This document shows, one piece after another, positions 34,325 through 48,022 of a DNA stretch of 64,000 nt. How positions within the stretch are numbered: the stretch's first letter is position 1; each line of letters begins with the position of its first letter. Source of the DNA: a virus; the IMG/VR virus record IMGVR_UViG_3300042485_001041, positions 1-64,000 of that record. One strand, 5' to 3'. The translations under genes were made by a program, and so were the position numbers. The notes under the pieces were generated by a model. The model saw nothing but the letters and a program-made list of their open reading frames with translations, was not told where the DNA came from and did no database searches.

Positions 34325-34915
34325 CTACTGCGTTTTTGCTTCTGCTATGGCTTTTGCTTTTGCTTTCGCTATTGCTTTGGCTTTGACTTCAGGGAACTTT
34401 GCCAGCCATGCTTTCGTTCTGGCTGTCATACCTTTCCACGAAGCCCAGTTTTCGCCCCCGTTGCTCATGTGATAAGCAATTTGGGCGTTAATCACAGGGT
34501 TTAGCAATTCGGCATTAGATTCTAAGCCAAACTTTTCTCTGCGATCTGCGCCTAACCCACCGATCATATTGATCTGGAATACTCCGTATGAACTGTCACC
34601 AGTCTTACGATTTCCGTTATAGGCGAGTGGTCGACCATTTGATTCTTTCTTCGCTACTGCCCATGCTTCTCGTAGGTCTTTCCCTTCGAACCCAACCGCA
34701 TTTAGTAGTTCTACTAACTGGTGGTCAGTCAAAGAGTCCGAGTTATGATACTTGGACAGGATTACTTCTTCGTATTGCTTTACTGCTACTAACGCTTCGG
34801 CTCTGGTCGGAGTAAAGGCTGGCGGTAAACCGACAACCCCATTAAGTACCACGAACATCGCTGTAAACAGCGAACCGAATACGATCTTGCCTTTTCGAGT
34901 TAGTTTCATCATCAC
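34325..34915 (-). CDS. Membrane-anchored lysozyme-like lytic transglycosylase
   Basis: N-terminal TM; AVAKKES.G, GVFQIN, L.NP..NA, W..W. Confidence 0.8.
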   Translation of the reverse strand: MMMKLTRKGKIVFGSLFTAMFVVLNGVVGLPPAFTPTRAEALVAVKQYEEVILSKYHNSDSLTDHQLVELLNAVGFEGKDLREAWAVAKKESNGRPLAYNGNRKTGDSSYGVFQINMIGGLGADRREKFGLESNAELLNPVINAQIAYHMSNGGENWASWKGMTARTKAWLAKFPEVKAKAIAKAKAKAIAEAKTQ

Positions 34916-36189
34916 TCCAAATAGTCATTGACAGTTTCACCTGCTTTTGACTGGTTGTGACGAAGGCGATGTAAGTATCGCTCTGTCGTCTGTATTGATT
35001 GGTGACCTAGTCGCTCTTTGACCTCATGGACATCTACCCCGTTTTTTAATAACTGGGTAGCGTTTGCGTGCCTGAGATCGTGAGTTCTAGGCTTCCAATC
35101 TATGCCTGACTTGGCTATTGCTTTGTTCCAGATCGTTCTCCATACATCTCGTGGAAGGTGACTCGATTGATCGATAAACCCCTGTTGCTTCTGGTATGGC
35201 TTCTGGTATGGCTTTGCCTTTTGCCTATGCTTTCGCACCGACTCTCGGCAATCACCACACCTACAACCGCCATGCGTGTAGGCATACAGAGTTCCATGCT
35301 GGAACTGTTTTCCGTCTTTTGCGAATGGTCGCTCAGACATTTTATTCTCTCCACGAGAAGCCTCTATTTTACTTTCTATGGTCACTAGTGACTTAGGGAA
35401 GAGCAGATCATCTTTTGCTAGGGCTTTAGCCTTGACATGAGCCTTAATCTCATGTAACAGGGCTTGGCTTAACATAAGGCTTCGCTTATGACCTGACTTG
35501 GTCGCATCGACTACCAAGAATCGACTGCTATGGCTTTTGCCTAGATCGCTCACTCTTCGCTGTACGAACACCTCTCCCGAAGTGAAGTTGATGTCTTTGA
35601 CTCGCAACTCGGTGGCTTCACCGAATCGGCAACCCGAAGCGATCAAGAATTGCGCGAATAATTGGGCATTCTTATTCGGTAAATGCTTAATTATGGACTT
35701 GAACTGCTCTGGCTCTAATACCTGCTGTAAGTCGGCATGGCGTTGCTTAATCCTTATCCCATGAGTCGGGTTACTGGCTAACTCACCCGTCTGGACTAGT
35801 CGCTTAAAGGCAGACCCCAGAGAGGCTTTGACTTGCCTCAGCGTTGCTGGTTGAACCCCACTTAACTTCAACTCTTCCAGCAGGTGAACTAACTTTCGGC
35901 GGTCAATGGAAGTTACTTTGAGATGCCCGATCTTTGGCAGGGCATACTGCCTAAGCACCGACTCGTAACCCTTACGGGTGATAGGCATGAGATCAGCAAC
36001 GGGCAACCACTCTTCGATATAGGTGGATAGGGTCATAGAAGCCCTAGAAGCCCCCTCTGAATCCGATCGCTCGGCTTGTAAGGCGTGGTATTCGGCTTCG
36101 GTTTTCGTATCCCAAGTGCCAGCAGAGAGCCGTTTACCGCCCTTGCGATAATAGCCAGTCCAACGATCTTTACGCTTTACGGCATACAT
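34912..36189 (-). CDS. int: Tyrosine recombinase/integrase with inserted HGT-CRCxxC module
   Basis: SGCRFGE (R), TKS (K), HDLRH, LGH......T..Y catalytic residues. Confidence 0.9.
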   Translation of the reverse strand: MYAVKRKDRWTGYYRKGGKRLSAGTWDTKTEAEYHALQAERSDSEGASRASMTLSTYIEEWLPVADLMPITRKGYESVLRQYALPKIGHLKVTSIDRRKLVHLLEELKLSGVQPATLRQVKASLGSAFKRLVQTGELASNPTHGIRIKQRHADLQQVLEPEQFKSIIKHLPNKNAQLFAQFLIASGCRFGEATELRVKDINFTSGEVFVQRRVSDLGKSHSSRFLVVDATKSGHKRSLMLSQALLHEIKAHVKAKALAKDDLLFPKSLVTIESKIEASRGENKMSERPFAKDGKQFQHGTLYAYTHGGCRCGDCRESVRKHRQKAKPYQKPYQKQQGFIDQSSHLPRDVWRTIWNKAIAKSGIDWKPRTHDLRHANATQLLKNGVDVHEVKERLGHQSIQTTERYLHRLRHNQSKAGETVNDYLE

Positions 36190-36272: not shown

Positions 36273-36306
36273 AAAATAGCCCCTAGACCAGAACCGATCT
36301 AGGGGC
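36271..36306 (-). terminator. Intrinsic terminator ending the early operon
   Basis: GCCCCTAGA / TCTAGGGGC stem followed by TATTTTTT on the minus strand. Confidence 0.75.
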
Positions 36307-36416: not shown

Positions 36417-36614
36417 TTACTTATCCAGTTCAATCTCGATCTGGTTTGCTCTCTTACTCTGCCATTCGGTGATCGTTTCTTGCTTCCAGATAGGCGTTCG
36501 CCCCATGTAGCGATCTGGCTCTGGAAGGGTGCTTCGCTTTCGATAGGTGTAAATCGTTTCCACCTTTAGACCCGTTAAGGTAGCGATGTCGGTACTTGTT
36601 AGCCATTCGCTCAC
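36417..36614 (-). CDS. AlpA/excisionase-like HTH protein
   Basis: WLTSTDIATLTGLKVETIYTY....LPEPD..GRTPIW....I.EW. Confidence 0.75.
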   Translation of the reverse strand: MSEWLTSTDIATLTGLKVETIYTYRKRSTLPEPDRYMGRTPIWKQETITEWQSKRANQIEIELDK

Positions 36615-37087
36615 TTAGTTTCACCATTCTTTGATTTAGTTTCATCTGGATTTTTTCCCCACTTCAATTCTCTAGTTTGGGCATCTGCCCATAGATAGGG
36701 CGATGAAATACCTACTTTGAAATCGTAATACTCTGGTGCTTTACGCTTTAAGTTGCTCTGGTGCGATAGGTGTAACACTTCATCACCAACCCAGAATGGA
36801 AGTCCTGTATCTGGAAGTAACGCATGAACTGCCACGAATCTAGCGAGCATCGTGTCCTGATAGCCCCTAGCACGCCACTCCATACAGATAGCCATTCCGT
36901 ATTCGCATAGAGCGCGTTCATAACCGCGCCACATTTTAACAGCAGGGTGATTAACCCAACCTTCGCTATTACCGAGAAGAGTATTAAGAATCTGCCACGC
37001 TTCAACGCGCTGTTTACCTAATCGCCTGTAATCAAGTGCCATAGCAGTTTTACCGAACTCGGCATAAGGCATGAATGTATTAACCAT
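36611..37087 (-). CDS. Pyrimidine-dimer glycosylase-like protein (MSMEG_6728/DenV family)
   Basis: TFMPY......LD.RRLGKQRVEA.QI, GW.NHPAV.MWRGYE, SHQSNL.RK.PEYY. Confidence 0.8.
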   Translation of the reverse strand: MVNTFMPYAEFGKTAMALDYRRLGKQRVEAWQILNTLLGNSEGWVNHPAVKMWRGYERALCEYGMAICMEWRARGYQDTMLARFVAVHALLPDTGLPFWVGDEVLHLSHQSNLKRKAPEYYDFKVGISSPYLWADAQTRELKWGKNPDETKSKNGETK

Positions 37088-37251: not shown

Positions 37252-37521
37252 TTAAAACTCCTTCGCTACTGATTGATACTTGTGGCGTTGCTCTCTGCGC
37301 TTTAAGTTCTGGCGTTCACCTTCGGTAAGTCCACCGAAGATCCCGTAAGCGACATTATTAGTTAGCGCGAAAGTAAGGCACGCATTCTTATCTGCTGGCT
37401 TACAACTGGCGCATAGTGACTTTGCTTCGTGAATCTTTAAGTGTTCAGTCGGGTCTGGAAAGAATATATCTGGGTCATTAGCCGACTGACAGGGCGCATC
37501 TATGATCTCGTATCTAGCCAT
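37252..37521 (-). CDS. whiB: Second WhiB-family protein
   Basis: C....DPDIFFP, AKSLCASC......CL, GIFGGLTEGER. Confidence 0.8.
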   Translation of the reverse strand: MARYEIIDAPCQSANDPDIFFPDPTEHLKIHEAKSLCASCKPADKNACLTFALTNNVAYGIFGGLTEGERQNLKRREQRHKYQSVAKEF

Positions 37522-37819
37522 TATCTTTGCCCTTCTTATAGTCGATGAATGTATCTAGCATCTCGCTTAACTCTTCTGGCGTTACTTCTGCTAGTCGAGT
37601 AAGAATCTCGATAACTGTAAGCATTCCCCAGATTAAGTATTCAGGGTCGAGTTCATGCTTTGCCATGATCTCGTTTAAGTGTTCATTAGCGATGTGAGTC
37701 TGAATCTCTTCTGGAAGATGATCTTCTCGCTCTGACTCCAACTTAAATCCGCGACATAACTTCAAGAACTCGTTAGCAAGTTCGATTGAATTAACTCTTA
37801 ATTGCTCTTCACTACTCAT
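37514..37819 (-). CDS. Hypothetical protein
   Basis: Coupled ORF with RBS. Confidence 0.55.
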   Translation of the reverse strand: MSSEEQLRVNSIELANEFLKLCRGFKLESEREDHLPEEIQTHIANEHLNEIMAKHELDPEYLIWGMLTVIEILTRLAEVTPEELSEMLDTFIDYKKGKDNG

Positions 37820-37958
37820 TTATTTTCCCCTTCTGTAAGTAAGTGCTTTCAATCTGACGCACTTGTAACCGAGTTAGTTCGAATTGATCTGCGACTGTTG
37901 CTAGTGACTTACCAGCAAGTCGAAGATCGACTATCTGTTTTTTTATTTCATCGTTCAT
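37812..37958 (-). CDS. Small sigma region-4-like HTH protein (not in ORF track)
   Basis: IVDLRLAGKSLATVADQFELTRLQVRQIE. Confidence 0.55.
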   Translation of the reverse strand: MNDEIKKQIVDLRLAGKSLATVADQFELTRLQVRQIESTYLQKGKINE

Positions 37959-37991
37959 AATAGGTATTCCATTCTCTAGGTAAATAAATAG

Positions 37992-38134
37992 TTAGTAGAG
38001 ATCGCTCAGAAGTAGAACGGGTGCGTGTAATAGGCTCGGACTCGAAAGTCGGTACAGCCCATTAATCTGATCAGATTTTCGTACACTCTTTTCAGTCTTA
38101 TCGAAGTCTGCTAGGTGTGAACGATCTCTACTAA
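37992..38134 (-). ncRNA. Structured RNA element A
   Basis: 17-bp closing stem (G-U pair valid on minus strand only); internal AAUGGGCU/AGCCUAUU helix and GACU-UUCG-AGUC hairpin. Confidence 0.55.
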
Positions 38135-38141
38135 TAATGGA

Positions 38142-38270
38142 ATCGAGCAGGGGCAGGTATAACTCTTTTCAACAGCGCGGAAAGTACGCTGAGGACTGTC
38201 ATGGCTATCCTTCAAGGGTAAGGAGTGGGTCATAGAAGCCCAGTTAACCCCTTGTTTACCCCCACTCGAT
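38142..38270 (-). ncRNA. Structured RNA element B
   Basis: AUCGAGUGGGGGUA / UGCCCCUGCUCGAU closing stem with three G-U pairs; several internal hairpins. Confidence 0.5.
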
Positions 38271-38275
38271 AAGTT

Positions 38276-38524
38276 TTATTCTTCTTCTGGCTCGCAATCG
38301 CAATCTTCTTCTGCGTGTTCATCGCAATTCCATTGGCAGTTTTCACCGACCCAATCGTTGACATGACCAACGCATACATCTAACGCATCGTCTGCGATCT
38401 CGTGTCCGTCTGCCATACCTTTGAAGTCCGATGAATCCCACCATGTAATTACGATCTCTTCTTTGAGATCAGTTGCGTAAGTGCGATTAAGTATTTCGAT
38501 CGCTTCTTTAACTGTAACTATCAT
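38276..38524 (-). CDS. Acidic hypothetical protein
   Basis: Coupled ORF. Confidence 0.55.
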   Translation of the reverse strand: MIVTVKEAIEILNRTYATDLKEEIVITWWDSSDFKGMADGHEIADDALDVCVGHVNDWVGENCQWNCDEHAEEDCDCEPEEE

Positions 38525-38677
38525 TTATTTATCCAATCCGTAGCACTCGACCATTGATTTGAAGCAGTAATGATCGCCAACCCAGTTGATGTGGTTAACG
38601 ATCGCACCAATAATTAGTAGAACGATGATCGAACTGATGATCGCTACTACCCAACCTAACTTAGTTAAATTATTCAT
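38525..38677 (-). CDS. Small membrane protein
   Basis: MNNLTKLGWVVAII... single TM; TAATG coupling. Confidence 0.55.
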   Translation of the reverse strand: MNNLTKLGWVVAIISSIIVLLIIGAIVNHINWVGDHYCFKSMVECYGLDK

Positions 38678-39258
38678 TACGCAACCCTCTCTAGGTACAT
38701 TCGGTATCTCCATGAGTTTCGTTCGATAAGAGTTTTCTCTTGGTGGCAACTAGCGCAACGAATCACGCACTTATTAATCTCGCGTTGGATTATGTGTGAC
38801 GGGTAATTCTTTAAGACTCCGTTGCTGATGTCGAAAAGTTTTTTACCGCGCACATGGTCGAAGGTTGCTTGAAGCGGATTAATCATTCCGCAATCAACGC
38901 ATGGCTTCTGGTAATAACGAAATACAAGTCTGCGAGCAGGACTCTCTTTCGTTATGTGATTGTGCTTTTGTATCGCACTAACGCATGGTTTACATCTACC
39001 TTCTCGACTTGGTTTGCGCCCTTTGCGATTTGCTAATTGAAATGATGAAATTACTTTCACCTTCTCGCATGATGAACACTTGCGTTTGCCTTTGGCTTCT
39101 AGTGCTAATCGTTTAGCAGTTCGATCTGCCGAAGTTTTACGCTGAATAGACTGGCAACGCTTACACCTTGCGCGTTTTCCATACTTGCCGTCAACGAACT
39201 TATTAAACTCTTTGAGTGGCAAGTCCTTGAAGCAACCTAAGCAGTTTTTAGTACGCAT
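38677..39258 (-). CDS. Zinc-finger/HNH-like endonuclease
   Basis: Repeated CxxC; CVDC...FDHV.G.K...EINKC...CASCH. Confidence 0.7.
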   Translation of the reverse strand: MRTKNCLGCFKDLPLKEFNKFVDGKYGKRARCKRCQSIQRKTSADRTAKRLALEAKGKRKCSSCEKVKVISSFQLANRKGRKPSREGRCKPCVSAIQKHNHITKESPARRLVFRYYQKPCVDCGMINPLQATFDHVRGKKLFDISNGVLKNYPSHIIQREINKCVIRCASCHQEKTLIERNSWRYRMYLERVA

Positions 39259-39966
39259 TTAATCCCAATCAGTAGTTAGTCCTGCGAGAGAGAGAGTTTT
39301 ATACTTTAGATCGTCATGGTTAGACGGCGTTACATAACCAACCACGAATCTACTTCCAGTAGTCGCAACGATCACGCCTCTACGCAATCGACCATGAGCC
39401 TGAACCCATACCCTGTCACCAACGAAGGCGTTATATGGTGGCTTCGCGTTCTGCCAACTACCTTCGTATTGTTCACCAGCAAGCGAGATCAGTTCATTTT
39501 TAATAGCGCGAATCTTTGAAAGTATCTCTAATTTATCTTTCGCCACTTTCATAGTTTTAGCCATTGATCTACCGCGACCGATACCGCACACCACCGCATG
39601 ATGAGTTAGCCAATTTAACTCTGCGTTATCATGCTTCGTGCCGATCTCCCACGCATACGCCGTATAAACATTTACTAGTTTAGTTTCACCATAACCACCA
39701 ACCAGAGAAGCATCAACGCTGTAATGAGAAGTTAACGGGTTGCCATTAACATCTAAAACTTCTCGCATTGAGTATCTAACTTCGGTGATAATTAGTTGAA
39801 AGTGATCTTTGAAAGTTTCTTCATGGAAGATAGTTTCAATAACTTTTATCTCGTGAGTTGTATCCATGAACTTGTAACTATCAGGCTGTCTGCGACCAGT
39901 CCATTCGTTAGTGTGGAAGTGATACTTCTCGTAGCACACTTTGAATCGATCTAAGAAAATACTCAT
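39259..39966 (-). CDS. Hypothetical protein
   Basis: Coupled ORF, 235 aa. Confidence 0.6.
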   Translation of the reverse strand: MSIFLDRFKVCYEKYHFHTNEWTGRRQPDSYKFMDTTHEIKVIETIFHEETFKDHFQLIITEVRYSMREVLDVNGNPLTSHYSVDASLVGGYGETKLVNVYTAYAWEIGTKHDNAELNWLTHHAVVCGIGRGRSMAKTMKVAKDKLEILSKIRAIKNELISLAGEQYEGSWQNAKPPYNAFVGDRVWVQAHGRLRRGVIVATTGSRFVVGYVTPSNHDDLKYKTLSLAGLTTDWD

Positions 39967-40580
39967 GCCACCGAATCCCTTGCTTCGAGAATCTTCTCGA
40001 TTAGTGTTTGAAGTACGCGAGCATCGAACTCGACAGTCGCTATTGGCGTGTAGTCACCATTCGCATCTCTGCGATTACCAACTGAACCGCGAACGCTGTT
40101 AATGCGATCACCGATAATTGTTTTTAGCGCGAGCATTGAAGAATCAAGAATGCGCTGTTGGTAGTTTTCCAACTCTGCTCTCTTGCGTTGCGCCTCTTCG
40201 CGTTCGATACGAGCCTTCTCTTCACGAGCCTGTTCTTCTGCTTCACGAACTGCCCAACGCGCTTCTAGTGACGGATATTCAGCCACGATGTCCTGTGGGC
40301 GTGCGAGCCAGTAAGTCCATTCATCAGGTTTGGTTGCCCACTTCTGAGATCGCACCATGTAACCAACGCTTCGTGCGCCCTTGTCGGCAGGTTGGAAGTT
40401 TGGGTTATGTGGTGAATCAAATCGAAATACCTTGTAATCGTATTTATCTAGTGACACTAATTCCGCATTCGCAAGTGAACCGCGACTTACAGTATCGGGA
40501 TTTTTCTTATCCGATGATGAATAATCCCATGAAGGAATTACGCCGTAGTGAACTCCAACTTTTAATTCGCCTGATTTCAT
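39963..40580 (-). CDS. Hypothetical protein
   Basis: AAGGAG RBS, 205 aa. Confidence 0.6.
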   Translation of the reverse strand: MKSGELKVGVHYGVIPSWDYSSSDKKNPDTVSRGSLANAELVSLDKYDYKVFRFDSPHNPNFQPADKGARSVGYMVRSQKWATKPDEWTYWLARPQDIVAEYPSLEARWAVREAEEQAREEKARIEREEAQRKRAELENYQQRILDSSMLALKTIIGDRINSVRGSVGNRRDANGDYTPIATVEFDARVLQTLIEKILEARDSVA

Positions 40581-40967
40581 TTATTTATTCTCCTTAGTTA
40601 CTAGTTCGATAATTCGTTCGGCAGTTTGATCGAGTGCTACATCAACGATAGTTACATCGCTGTTAACGCTTTTCAAGTGATCTGTAATAACTTTAGTTAT
40701 ACATTTTTCGTAATCGTAATCTTCATCTGTATTTTGATCTAACACTAAGTTGCCGTTATTAGAATCGTAATAAACAGTTACAAGTAATTGTTTTTTCTTC
40801 ATGTTTAGTTTCCCTTGTTTAGTTAAAGAGTTCGCGCACTTTACGCAAACCGAGTAGAGGTAGCCGTCAGGATAAGTAACTTCTCTTTCATTCTTAGAGT
40901 TACTAATAAGTTCTCGGCATTCATAGCATGAGATAAGAGCCTTTACTTTTATTCCCTTGTAATTCAT
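40581..40967 (-). CDS. Hypothetical protein with two CxxC
   Basis: Probable start MNYKGIK after AAGGG RBS. Confidence 0.5.
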   Translation of the reverse strand: MNYKGIKVKALISCYECRELISNSKNEREVTYPDGYLYSVCVKCANSLTKQGKLNMKKKQLLVTVYYDSNNGNLVLDQNTDEDYDYEKCITKVITDHLKSVNSDVTIVDVALDQTAERIIELVTKENK

Positions 40968-41054
40968 ATTCGTTTCCCTTGTTAGTTGGTTAGGGGTGGA
41001 GTGGGGCAAGTTAGTACCAAGCCCCACCCCACCGAGTCACCTAGAGAGTGACAT

Positions 41055-42980
41055 TTAGTTTCGAACGAGTCTGCGAGTGATCGCGTACTTCACGATCTTT
41101 CGAGCCATTCCAATTAGATCGAGTGGATTATTAATAACCGCACCGATCTCGCAACGATGTGAAGTTTCACTATCGAGAACGATCTGTTCGTTTGAATTGG
41201 GAATGTATGCGAACGCCGTTAACACGCCAGCACGAGCCATTCGATCGATCGCATCGTGAGTTTGCTTTAAGTCACCGCCCCATTCTCCGTCAGTAATGGC
41301 GAAGAAAATACGAACTGGTTTATCAGTTTCGGCAAGTAACTTAGTCGCGTACTTAACGGCTTGATCTGGCTCAGTACCGCCACCAGCACCAGCATCTCGA
41401 ATCACGCCAGTTGCTTTATCTTTTGCGCGATACAGCAGGTTAGTATCACTATTGAAAGTGATAACAGTTGTATTCGCATTGATCTTGTCGAGTGCGCGTT
41501 TAATTGCGTACATCGCCTTGTATGCCTTCTCTGCCTTATGACCAGACATCGAACCAGAGTTATCGAGAATGACTACGCATTCGATCTCGCAAGCATCTTC
41601 GATACCTTCATTCCATGAATCGAAAACAGTTTCGATGTCCTCTCCACGCAAGTAACGCCCTGCGTGTAAGCGACCACTCGACTCGTAAGTTTCCCAAGCA
41701 GGGTCATACGATGATTTCAACCGCAACAGTTCACGAGCGAATGTTGCTGATGCTTCAACAGTTTTAGAATCAGGGCGAAGCGAATTAAATCGCTCTAACT
41801 CTGGCTCTTTAGCGTTATTGGTAGCAAGAGAAGGTAAGCCACCAATCTGGCGCATGATGTCGCGGATTTCATCTGCGATCTCGGCACTAGTAAGAATGTC
41901 ATTCAGAGTTGATTGAAGTAACTCTGCTAGTTCGTTACCGACTCCGTCAGAACTTTCATCGTTGATTTCATCGTCACCATAATCTTCGAACTCGACTTGA
42001 TCGATGTCTAATTCGATAGTTGGTTTTGATTTCATCTTCTCTGCGAGTTCGGCATCGTCTGCCTGATCTAATTTAGAAGCACGATCTGAATCGCGCTTCT
42101 GTTGTTTAGGTGGTTGAGGGCGTGAAGCCATAGAGGACTCGATACCTTCGTGTGGGCGATTGCCATGACCGAATGGGTCATTGAGAATGACATTGAAATC
42201 GCCTTCTTTGCCCTCTCCAGCAGGTTTAACTTTGATCTGGGTGCTTCCACCTTCACCAGAGCCGTCACCGCTTCCAGAGCCGTCACCTTTGGGCAACAGC
42301 GTATGGAATCGCGCTATTAATTCTTTCCCTTTTTCAGTATCAGTAGGGAATACAAGTAAGCGATAAGCATCGACTATCTCGCATATTTCAGCGATATTTT
42401 CTTGCTCTGGATACGCATTACGAGAGTTCGCTCTAATTTGAACAGGTAAGTATCTGCGACCACGAAGTAGCGGATACGAATTAACGAAGGCATCTGGCTT
42501 CTCTACGAAGTGAATCAGAATCGTAGAAGTAAACCAATCAACAGTTGAGGGATAGCGAGTAGTAAATAAAGTTTCTATTCGCTGATCTTCAAGTGCGTTA
42601 TATGCCGAGAAGTAATTGTTATCTCTAACGAACTCGAAGATGTCTGAACCTTCTCGTGCTGTATAGAGAATGTGACTGATCTCGTGAAGATCAAGCCCTT
42701 TAAGTCCAGCGATTGATTTAGCATCATTTAGATCGCCAATTAATCGTGAATTAAAAGTTACTTCACTAGCACCAGAGTAAGCAGGTGAGTTCATCGATGA
42801 ATGCTCGACCTTTACAGTCACCTTGCGGAAAGTGAATGCTGAGTTCACTCGACCGAATAAGTGACAGAAGCGTTCGATCTTCTGGCGATGTAGTTCTGCT
42901 TCATCGCGCTGGCGCATTAGCGCACCAGCATCTAGCCCTTGTAGAAGTTCATCTACTTGGTCATGTATTGAACCGCGCAT
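41055..42980 (-). CDS. vWA-domain protein with N-terminal HExxH domain (CobT-like)
   Basis: HEISH, NALEDQRIE, acidic linker, LDNSGSM MIDAS, GGT, TDG. Confidence 0.85.
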   Translation of the reverse strand: MRGSIHDQVDELLQGLDAGALMRQRDEAELHRQKIERFCHLFGRVNSAFTFRKVTVKVEHSSMNSPAYSGASEVTFNSRLIGDLNDAKSIAGLKGLDLHEISHILYTAREGSDIFEFVRDNNYFSAYNALEDQRIETLFTTRYPSTVDWFTSTILIHFVEKPDAFVNSYPLLRGRRYLPVQIRANSRNAYPEQENIAEICEIVDAYRLLVFPTDTEKGKELIARFHTLLPKGDGSGSGDGSGEGGSTQIKVKPAGEGKEGDFNVILNDPFGHGNRPHEGIESSMASRPQPPKQQKRDSDRASKLDQADDAELAEKMKSKPTIELDIDQVEFEDYGDDEINDESSDGVGNELAELLQSTLNDILTSAEIADEIRDIMRQIGGLPSLATNNAKEPELERFNSLRPDSKTVEASATFARELLRLKSSYDPAWETYESSGRLHAGRYLRGEDIETVFDSWNEGIEDACEIECVVILDNSGSMSGHKAEKAYKAMYAIKRALDKINANTTVITFNSDTNLLYRAKDKATGVIRDAGAGGGTEPDQAVKYATKLLAETDKPVRIFFAITDGEWGGDLKQTHDAIDRMARAGVLTAFAYIPNSNEQIVLDSETSHRCEIGAVINNPLDLIGMARKIVKYAITRRLVRN

Positions 42981-42990
42981 GGAGTCCTCT

Positions 42991-43860
42991 CTAAGCGTTC
43001 GCGTACTCGGTTGTAATGGACTCTACGGCTATGCCCAAGTCCTCTTTGATGTTGTAACCAGCACCTTCTAAGAGCATCTTTACAGCAGGTCGCTCTTCTT
43101 CGGTGAAGTTATTAGTAAAGATTTCGCACGCTAGATCGTATGACAATTCTTTCGAAATCTTCTCGAAAGTTTTTAGAATGCGAGATGTAATTGGAGTTTC
43201 GAAGATCGTTGCGTTATTGGAGTGTGAACCACTAGAAGATGTAGAGCGCATTCCGTAAGCAAGATCAAGCAGAGCAGGTGAAGCGATGTATTGACTTTCA
43301 ACAGCGCGATCGAAATCGTAATGAAGTTTGATCTCGAAGCGATCTGCTAATTGCTCTGGTAGTGGTTGAGAGCCACGATAGTTTGGATTGAAGTCAGCGA
43401 TGATTAATAGATCAGGGTGCGCCTTAATAACTTCGCCCTTGTGTCCTAGAAGCGTAATAACACGCGAGAAGTCCAGAAGTGGAAGTACGAAGTGTTTAGC
43501 GTTCTTGGCTAACTTATCGATCTCACCAAGATTGAGAATGCCACCATGACGAACTAAGTTTACGATCTGCGAATCGACCCACTCTAGTTTTCCATTTTCA
43601 TCTGGCACATAAGAGCCTTGAAGTTCCGAAGCACTTAATGAATCGTTCGAAGGCACATTGTAATAAGGCAAGCCACGAAGCGAAGCGATGTATTGAGCGA
43701 ATGAAGATTTACCAGTACCAGAATGTCCGAAGTTAAGGATATTCATTTTGTTTTTGATTGCGTAATCTGCGATTGCGATTTCAGATACGCCAGCGAATGA
43801 TCGTGGCACATAATGCGCCATTGAATCGAGCGAAGGTATAAATTGGTTGATCGTTGACAT
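42991..43860 (-). CDS. MoxR/CbbQ/CobS-like AAA+ ATPase
   Basis: GHSGTGKS, GGILNLGEID, HPDLLII, NPNYRG, LADRF. Confidence 0.85.
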   Translation of the reverse strand: MSTINQFIPSLDSMAHYVPRSFAGVSEIAIADYAIKNKMNILNFGHSGTGKSSFAQYIASLRGLPYYNVPSNDSLSASELQGSYVPDENGKLEWVDSQIVNLVRHGGILNLGEIDKLAKNAKHFVLPLLDFSRVITLLGHKGEVIKAHPDLLIIADFNPNYRGSQPLPEQLADRFEIKLHYDFDRAVESQYIASPALLDLAYGMRSTSSSGSHSNNATIFETPITSRILKTFEKISKELSYDLACEIFTNNFTEEERPAVKMLLEGAGYNIKEDLGIAVESITTEYANA

Positions 43861-43919
43861 GTTATTCCGTTTCTCTAGGTGATTGGTTTGGTTTTATTTT
43901 CTTACTTATTAAGTTGTAG

Positions 43920-44060
43920 TTACGAATGGATAGTGAGTAGCAAGTAACTCGGCATGGAATGGGTTGGGCTTCGCGGTCACTACGGCTAAAGATCAGCGGT
44001 AGCGAAAGGATTGTCGCGCCATGTGATGTCTGGATACAGGTGGTCACTATCCATTCGTAA
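43920..44060 (-). ncRNA. Structured RNA element C
   Basis: Perfect 17-bp inverted repeat TTACGAATGGATAGTGA enclosing a multi-hairpin interior. Confidence 0.55.
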
Positions 44061-44063
44061 TTC

Positions 44064-44336
44064 TTATTCATAGTCAGTTGTAACAGCATCTACATTCTTA
44101 GCGATTATTTTAGAAGCCAGATATACATCTTCTAACTCACTCGCTAATTCTTGGAATTGATTAAAGATCGCGCACTCTTCATCGATCGCTGGACATAACT
44201 TGTCCATGATTGATTGAAGAAGTTCGGTCACCTTCTCTGGTGCTGGTTCATCTCGATCTAACGCGTTCTCTAACGCCATTCCAAGAATGGTGCTGGCGAG
44301 TCCGAGTTCATCGAGTGTGAAAGTAATCTTTGCCAT
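44064..44336 (-). CDS. Hypothetical protein
   Basis: AGGGG RBS. Confidence 0.55.
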   Translation of the reverse strand: MAKITFTLDELGLASTILGMALENALDRDEPAPEKVTELLQSIMDKLCPAIDEECAIFNQFQELASELEDVYLASKIIAKNVDAVTTDYE

Positions 44337-46510: not shown

Positions 46511-47200
46511 TTATGTATTCACCCCACTAGTAACCAGAGATAGATCGCTGTCTATTTACCAGTTACTAGTAGAGAAAACACATAAGCAGATAATTACTAA
46601 TTGAGTTGCCCAGTTCGTTCACTATGCTTCATGCGGATTGGTTACCGATTGCGCTGTTATTAACAGATAGTCCATGTGAACTGGATTCAATCTCCATAAT
46701 TATTTTCCCTAAGCCATATCTGCTATTCACAATTAATTTCTTAATCGTTGGAGTTGTTTACATTTAATGAAGTTAATCGCTCGTTATTAGTAGTAATCGC
46801 TAGTTAATAAATAGTGGATTCTATTTATTCATTCATCGCGTAGTAATAAGTTTTCGCAATTAGATTTTCATCTCTTGAATTATTCGCTCGTTATTCGTAA
46901 TCGCATTCACTAATAGCATCTAGTAGATAGATCGCTTTCGCCTTAGTTAGTTATTAATCGAGTTCATTGGTACAGAACACAATTAAAAGAATGCGATTCG
47001 TAATCGCAGATTTTCTTAGCCTCTATTTAATTAAGTTATTTAGTAACGATCGCCAGTTGAGTACCGCGCCTTAGCGTTGTTAGTTCGGGTCAGTTCACCG
47101 ACCATTACTAAATAACTTTGAGCATTTTTCACTTCTGATTAATAAACCGATCAGTTGCCCCTAGAGGATTCTGAAAAGATCGATCGTTGGTCGCGTGCGC
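46511..47200 (-). ncRNA. Long hairpin-rich untranslated leader or ncRNA cluster
   Basis: No ORF; long stems at 46511-46585, 46586-46723, 46806-46829 and 47033-47118, two of them with minus-strand G-U pairs. Confidence 0.5.
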
Positions 47201-47239: not shown

Positions 47240-48022
47240 CAGGCTCGATCTATTTACTCCGCGTTGCCGATCTAATTGTTAAGCCGAATGAGCGTGCGTG
47301 GGATTGAGCGTAAATACACCTGAGAGGGCGTAGAAGGGGTCTAAGAGCCGAGTACCCCCAGTTTGAAGGTAATCACCCCAGAGCAGGTGAGATCGTGGCT
47401 CATAGGGCGCGTGTGGAGAGGGGTGTTTATGCGTTAATGTCCGAATTGCCCGATATATGTAAGTCCACGCCGACAATGTGAAAGTTAGATAGTTAGATGC
47501 GCCGATGCGCCAGAGCCAGATGAAATTGCGCCGATGTATTTTTTTTCTCAGTATTAACAATTTAATCACTAAGAGAGAGTAGAGAAGATAAGAAGAAAAC
47601 AATTAAGAGGGAGATGTAATTAATTAATGATTAGTAGAAAAGATTATCCATTAGTTGATCGAGTTGATTCAAACAGCAGATTTAATTTATTGATGTGGTT
47701 AGCGAAGTACCAGATGAATAACCCCGATGTAGTAGAGATAGAGATTGATTCACATAACTATTAATAAATAATAATAAATAATAAATGATCGATGTGATGA
47801 TGTGATCGATGTGAACTCGAATAGCAGGTGGTTAGTACCTGATAACAACTGGGTGGCACACCTGACAGTCTGGTGTTACGCGCACAGCCACGCCACTTGC
47901 CAGAGCAGTAGCCGAAGATCGTGTCACCAAGATTGTCACCAAGTTAGTTAATCAATAACTATTTACGCTCATGTTAACTAGTTCGCACCTGACTAGTAAT
48001 CAGGAGTAATTGTTAACACCGA

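Follow-up and report, generated by a model that had tools for sequence, protein, structure and literature searches.

We describe three structured RNA modules, A, B and C, that lie between minus-strand genes in a 64,000-nucleotide (nt) stretch of viral DNA, hereafter the window, which comprises positions 1–64,000 of the 81-kb IMG/VR record IMGVR_UViG_3300042485_001041 (G000). They are three previously uncatalogued RNA families in a small clade of uncultured lake actinophages. Comparison with homologues on the contigs and records of relatives (given L numbers below) showed that A, B and C are strand-specific non-coding structures under selection, with modular gain and loss, and we regard it as very likely that they are genuine functional RNA structures. 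Their positions in the window are as follows.

37992..38134, minus strand: module A, 143 nt, between minus-strand open reading frames (ORFs)
38135..38141, minus strand: linker between B and A, 7 nt
38142..38270, minus strand: module B, 129 nt, between minus-strand ORFs
43920..44060, minus strand: module C, 141 nt, between minus-strand ORFs

Conserved folds of modules A, B, C and C2

The feature common to these modules and to a fourth family, C2, is a long uninterrupted helix (P1) that joins the two ends of the RNA. A first-pass annotation of this DNA had described A, B and C as intergenic elements in which long closing stems surround several hairpins, and we could reproduce its coordinates, its strand and its stems, which measure 13–17 bp. 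Folding with RNAfold, with z-scores taken against dinucleotide shuffles, gave minimum free energies of −45.3 kcal/mol for A (z −4.5, closing helix of 16–17 bp), −49.9 kcal/mol for B (z −4.0, closing helix of 13–14 bp) and −46.6 kcal/mol for C (z −6.3, closing helix of 16–17 bp), and few inverted repeats within the 64-kb window are as long as those of A and C. The plus-strand fold is weaker for A (z −2.4) and B (z −2.1); C folds well on either strand. The helices are arranged as follows.

Module A, minus strand: P1 of 17 bp, 38134–38118 with 38008–37992; a P2 hairpin, a long-range P3, a P4 hairpin (AUCUGAUCAGAU) and a variable P5 hairpin
Module B, minus strand: three-way junction, from fold and alignment; P1 of 13 bp, 38270–38258 with 38154–38142; P2 with an inner hairpin; P3 of 8 bp
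Module C, minus strand: P1 of 17 bp, 44060–44044 with 43936–43920

Homologues of B were found with a pattern for its 3′ arm and then with a covariance model, R1. The motif pattern of B matched 18 IMG/VR contigs besides the window's record, so that the module is present in at least 19 records; R1 confirmed each copy that was searched with it (70–135 bits, a single copy per record), and further copies lie on the lake-metagenome contigs L190 and L199. One related clade is without B. Across 185,579 prokaryote species genomes the pattern gave two matches, both of which we attribute to chance because R1 recognises neither. In alignments A4, A6 and A10, which hold 12 distinct sequences, 95.3% of cells are paired, with changes on both sides in 15 of the 29 pairs; none of 500 shuffles reached this level of covariation, and slid controls were only 35–47% paired. 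P3 abuts P1 on the 3′ strand, and the conserved motifs are GGGGUYAAC, CUCCUU(A), GAAGG, CAUGA and GUACCUGCC. In total, more than 30 positions of B are invariant, though the AAA ATPases of these phages are only ~60% identical to that of the window. Three wobble pairs, U-G or G-U, vary little or not at all among the homologues, and because they would be A-C mismatches on the opposite strand they place the structure on the strand of the genes. The covariance models likewise score 70–150 bits on the gene strand versus 18–40 bits on the opposite strand, in agreement with the original proposal, which assigned the structured RNAs to the transcribed minus strand.

Two resemblances in B were considered and rejected: a likeness to the 3′ end of 16S rRNA sits on covarying positions and is lost among homologues, and the partner strand of the CAUGA loop is a misfit for a kink-turn. 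The inner 15-nt hairpin of B, GGGCUUCUAUGACCC (38227–38241, minus strand), is repeated exactly and in the same sense at 36030–36044 within the integrase gene, with a chance expectation of ~0.02; at this place the hairpin of other B homologues is a different one.

About half of the phages with B also have a homologue of A behind it, and otherwise the ribosome-binding site comes directly after B; the insertion of A between B and the ribosome-binding site leaves B intact. Model R2 finds A after B in L028, L041, L101 and L216, and in these four, the window, L082, L183, L184, L190 and L199 the gap between B and A is constant at 7 nt, the A homologues themselves being 128–143 nt long. Among the six sequences of alignment A5, 95.3% of cells are paired and compensatory changes are found in 13 of 39 pairs, a covariation matched by 0 of 500 shuffles, with slid controls at 25–52% paired. 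P1 covaries at both ends around a conserved core, UAGAGAUC, and the conserved single strands are CACCUAGCAG, GAAAAG, GAAAAUCU and CGUUCUACUUCU.

A strain variant, on a contig of sequencing run X7 from another lake metagenome, provides a closer comparison for A. It has 24 changed positions within the module versus ~11 in the 590 nt downstream, corresponding to ~17% divergence in A versus ~2% in the flanks, and every helix is kept: five base pairs of P5 are swapped compensatorily and an A-U pair of P1 has become G-C. Across a 1.1-kb stretch, A holds more than half of the differences between the window and this contig. Such concentrated divergence suggests allele exchange or fast structure-preserving evolution. 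The UUCG loop previously noted in A is real but is not conserved, since it reads UUAACA in the strain variant and the whole hairpin is missing in other homologues.

Homologues of C occupy the same site in L002/L003 and L027/L028, giving three lineages with a covarying closing helix; model R3 found no further members. In alignment A8 all 13 of 13 P1 pairs are kept, seven of them with changes on both sides, and three wobble-preserving changes in an inner helix separate L027 from L028. The junction motifs CYACCUG (5′) and UGCUACUYAC (3′) are invariant, and the interior can be aligned with relatives only in part (GCGACAAUC, GAAGCCCAA). In relatives, the joint upstream of the AAA gene holds a C homologue, or C2, or nothing. 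C2, in which both the module's own closing helix P1 and the inner helices covary, is a fourth RNA family that takes the site of C in some relatives, with a length of 177–185 nt.

L022, 1748–1932, plus strand: C2 module
L021, 14074–14250, minus strand: C2 module
L020, 15369–15547, minus strand: C2 module

A, C and C2 follow a common plan of P1, ACCU(A)G, a CAGNC..GNCUG hairpin and an A-rich strand, and their common descent is possible. The motif CACCU..CAGAC, pointed out earlier as common to A and C in the window, and CUACU, which is likewise present in both, proved to be conserved among the homologues of each. A further match, UGAAAAGAGU, is present in A and B of the window as described, but it is not retained by B homologues and is therefore probably chance. 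Treating A and C as one superfamily was rejected: the junction motifs are common, but R2 misses C, and the single A copy reached by R3 scores only 9.7 bits. Module C, which precedes CobS/CobT-like genes, was also considered as a cobalamin riboswitch; this too was rejected, with no Rfam match and only a loose resemblance to a B12 box.

One further sequence recurs around C. A CTACAACTAA-like gene-end motif, with which the DUF6011 gene and the ORF of 90 amino acids (aa) upstream of C end ('..YN*'), occurs again just past C-type modules, and in L002 the 90-aa ORF is missing between two such motifs. The motif may be a recombination joint for the gain and loss of cassettes.

44061–44075 and 43905–43919 (also in L027 and L002): CTACAACTAA-like gene-end motif

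Known RNA families and coding potential were covered by separate searches. Against Rfam 15 (4227 families) there was no match at gathering scores over the window, nor at E-values up to 10 over both module regions, and ARAGORN found no tRNA or tmRNA. No reading frame is open in all homologues of any family, the homologues differ in length by non-multiples of 3, and all three frames occur in the spacing between the conserved AUG of B and its 3′ arm. The first-pass annotation had proposed a search of known families and a test of covariation among collected homologues, and had counted translated peptides as a refutation; no known family is matched, the helices of A, B and C are kept through compensatory changes, and the intervals are non-coding. 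Antisense targets for A, B and C were sought in the phage genome, and no complementary match of at least 13 nt was found beyond chance. Four short contigs of the lake metatranscriptome run X20 all lie on coding parts of the operon and none over A, B or C, which is neutral with respect to expression of the modules.

Operon setting and neighbouring genes

All three modules are carried in one long leftward operon, and their neighbours are listed here.

38276..38524, minus strand: ORF upstream of B, 82 aa, no family match; stop codon 5 nt before B
37812..37958, minus strand: small helix-turn-helix (HTH) ORF downstream of A, 48 aa, weak sigma-70 region 4 match
44064..44336, minus strand: ORF upstream of C, 90 aa; stop codon 3 nt before C
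42991..43860, minus strand: MoxR-type AAA_5 ATPase gene downstream of C; start codon 59 nt past C
41055–42980: VWA/CobT-like gene, next after the AAA_5 ATPase gene
37252–37521: WhiB-like regulator gene, in the leftward block
36611–37087: DenV-type pyrimidine-dimer glycosylase gene, in the leftward block
34912–36189: tyrosine integrase gene, in the leftward block

The joints are tight, with modules starting 3–5 nt past a stop codon and ending 7–60 nt ahead of the next ribosome-binding site. The start codon of the HTH ORF lies 33 nt past A, with the ribosome-binding motif ACCUAGAGAAUGGAA ahead of it (37981–37967), and ACCUAGAGAAACGGAA (43881–43866) precedes the start codon of the AAA_5 ATPase gene. 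Consensus scans placed promoter-like sites at 47806–47643 and the sole strong terminator at 36306–36279, and found no promoter or terminator flanking A, B or C; the modules are thus internal to a transcription unit of ~11.5 kb. The leftward block also contains HNH nuclease and small HTH genes, and with its WhiB, HTH and HNH genes the operon may plausibly be an early one.

The presence of a WhiB gene points to an actinobacterial host and, together with the integrase and DenV-type glycosylase genes, indicates that the virus is probably a temperate phage of such a host. The closest cultured relatives of individual proteins are found in Gordonia, Brevibacterium and Streptomyces phages, and a megablast search of 10 kb against cultured phages gave no match. 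DNA sequencing runs that contain the window sequence are lake metagenomes. Relatives of both small ORFs flanking A and B were sought by protein patterns, with none found.

Two further observations concern the same operon. An unusual ribosome-binding context, ACCUAGAGA(A/G)..GG, is common to three of its genes, namely the HTH ORF, a small membrane-protein ORF and the AAA ATPase gene; relatives retain this context as well, and it may serve as a shared site of translational control. The possibility that ACCUAGAGA(A/G)..GGA is part of the modules was rejected, as relatives have this ribosome-binding context ahead of their AAA and HTH genes whether or not they carry modules, and as the third gene, at 38696, has it too. 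A further long-stem element lies in the 1.5-kb non-coding leader of the operon; the G-U pairs of its helix are valid only on the minus strand, and R2 touches it only at an E-value of ~1.

37967–37981, 38681–38696 and 43866–43881, minus strand: ACCUAGAGA-type ribosome-binding context
47033–47118, minus strand: long-stem element, 86 nt, with a 20-bp closing helix (z −5.0)

Proposed release from the transcript and competing explanations

B retains its sequence and position with or without A downstream and has other neighbouring and downstream genes in L022 and L220, and one and the same joint can hold C, C2 or neither; we therefore regard these RNAs as self-contained modules rather than as leaders tuned to particular genes. 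Since they lack promoters, any RNA with a separate role would have to be cut out of the operon transcript. We propose that the helix of 13–17 bp would clamp the ends of the module, thereby insulating its fold from the flanks and holding the neighbouring cistrons close in space. This helix would also draw the stop codon upstream and the start region downstream towards each other, so that insertion of a module need not disturb the operon. A double-strand-specific nuclease, for example host RNase III, would then cut the closing helix, and the cut would both release an RNA of ~110–140 nt and split the upstream from the downstream message. The combination of conserved junction nucleotides with freely varying peripheral hairpins suggests a specific tertiary fold that binds a partner, and the released RNA would bind a protein through its conserved junctions and loops and act in trans. 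We put the probability of this whole chain, from self-contained modules through nuclease release to a partner-binding RNA, at roughly 0.45.

Precedents exist for the release step. Ribosomal RNAs are released from their precursors by the same arrangement, a long helix joining both ends, and the R sites of T7 and the early-RNA sites of SP82 are RNase III processing signals in polycistronic early mRNAs of phages. The minimum substrate of RNase III is ~11 bp (PMC3867540). Like T7-type sites, the modules lie between cistrons of one transcript, and the closing helices, with 17, 13 and 17 uninterrupted pairs in A, B and C and full pairing in all homologues, exceed that minimum; their length is consistent with release by RNase III. 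Unlike T7-type sites, which are single hairpins with an internal loop, they are domains of three to five helices with conserved junctions, and they resemble the precursor stalks of 16S and 23S rRNA in that the two ends of a folded RNA form the helix, and cutting it would set that RNA free.

Other known elements match the modules in part. Correia and ERIC elements are likewise 100–150 nt long, have terminal inverted repeats and are co-transcribed with adjacent genes, and Correia elements (CREE) can bind RNase III and be cleaved by it (PMC2649163), but these are high-copy mobile DNA with conserved terminal repeats, whereas the modules are single-copy, their arms covary and their interior fold is conserved. 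The surveys of Weinberg and Breaker describe orphan structured-RNA motifs in bacteria and phages (PMC2864571, PMC5737381) which, like the modules, are often phage-borne and are recognised only by covariation and conserved junctions. Unlike other orphan motifs, the modules fall outside the 4227 families of Rfam 15, are confined to one small clade of lake actinophages, and occupy tight joints between cistrons, with clamping helices of unusual length.

Several points weigh against release and a function in trans. The contigs of run X20, which lie only on coding parts, show no discrete small RNA and no cleavage site. Neither RNase III nor TROVE (Ro60, PF05731) nor reverse transcriptase proteins are encoded by the window's record. 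The minimum of ~11 bp may not be that of the actinobacterial host, and insulation of a cis-acting fold could be the sole purpose of the long helices.

This last point leads to the strongest competitor, which we nevertheless consider rather unlikely: that the modules are operon punctuation acting purely in cis, as elements of processing, stability or translational coupling by which the flanking cistrons are expressed at set levels relative to each other, with no released RNA having a job of its own. They do sit exactly in intercistronic joints, close to the upstream stop codon, and no promoter or terminator belongs to them; a long helix is a classic nuclease or stability signal (PMC3867540), and the Correia elements of Neisseria, bound and cut by RNase III, alter the expression of adjacent genes (PMC2649163). 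However, a processing hairpin has no need of a conserved three-way junction, nor of the defined junctions and more than 30 invariant positions that B maintains in phages whose AAA ATPases have diverged to only ~60% identity, and B tolerates both a 143-nt module A before the ribosome-binding site and, in L022 and L220, different downstream genes. Catalytic or ligand-sensing RNAs, in the form of new ribozymes that cleave themselves and thereby the operon transcript, or of aptamers for host metabolites, are improbable. Conserved unpaired junction nucleotides, variable peripheral hairpins and the B–A tandem are traits typical of such RNAs, and an alternative CCUU/AAGG pairing is possible in B that could compete with P3, yet there is no match to an Rfam ribozyme or riboswitch even at an E-value of 10 and no positive evidence for either activity. 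The candidate hammerhead core in A, with its hammerhead-like CUGAAAA, was rejected for want of the essential G; closing helices of 13–17 bp far exceed switching P1 stems, and no expression platform overlaps the ribosome-binding site. Equally a long shot is that the modules form a cassette of phage small RNAs, freed through host RNase III or by their own catalysis, which would act in trans on host proteins, for instance as sponges or decoys for RNA-sensing or RNA-guided defence; a decoy role against RNA-based defences is speculation. If it were true, the ~17% divergence of A, as against ~2% in the flanks, would be the trace of an arms race.

Slighter still is the probability that we are looking at DNA-level elements, either miniature inverted-repeat mobile elements or single-stranded-DNA signals in replication or recombination, in which the RNA fold is incidental. 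Terminal inverted repeats, presence/absence polymorphism at precise joints and the CTACAACTAA-like gene-end motif on both sides of C-type modules would fit such elements. Comparison of filled with empty sites (L082 versus L064 for A; L027 versus L023/L036 for C) gives precise boundaries, where the only possible target-site duplications are TA for A and the CTACAACTAA-like gene-end repeat for C. Each family is nevertheless single-copy per genome, and the arms differ among homologues yet stay complementary, so that selection acts on pairing rather than on a transposase site; moreover, the interior helices covary, the G-U pairs and the orientation always fit the transcribed strand, and no transposase gene is present among the operon ORFs scanned. 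The least probable reading, and a very doubtful one, is that of retron-like or Y-RNA-like RNAs working with a reverse transcriptase or a Ro60-type protein. As in retron msr-msd RNAs and YrlA Y RNAs, a structured interior is enclosed by a long stem between the 5′ and 3′ ends, so that the closing helices have the layout of flanking a1/a2 inverted repeats and resemble Y-RNA stems; UAGC stands just inside the 5′ arm of A, presumably comparable to the retron arrangement, and C lies near a VWA-domain gene. Unlike those systems, the modules come with neither a reverse transcriptase nor a Ro60/TROVE gene and have no tRNA-like module, in that no Y-RNA or tRNA-like match was obtained with Rfam and none with ARAGORN. 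Without a reverse transcriptase the retron analogy does not hold: the absence of the enzyme, noted at first for the window, now extends to the whole 81-kb record and to the records of five relatives (RVT_1, PF00078, absent from G000, G001 and G010–G013; control genomes matched).

Meaning for phage RNA biology

Non-coding RNAs of phages have been charted far less than phage proteins. The small clade described here has four RNA folds that are supported by covariation, new to the catalogues and built on one plan, with a multi-helix core, a long helix as clamp and a slot between cistrons, and the families are defined well enough for submission to Rfam. If the modules act in cis only, they would be an example of how large folded RNAs can be fitted into tight gene joints without breaking the operon. 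Should they be released and act in trans, they would be modular RNA cargo of a new kind carried in phage operons, possibly serving host takeover or counter-defence.

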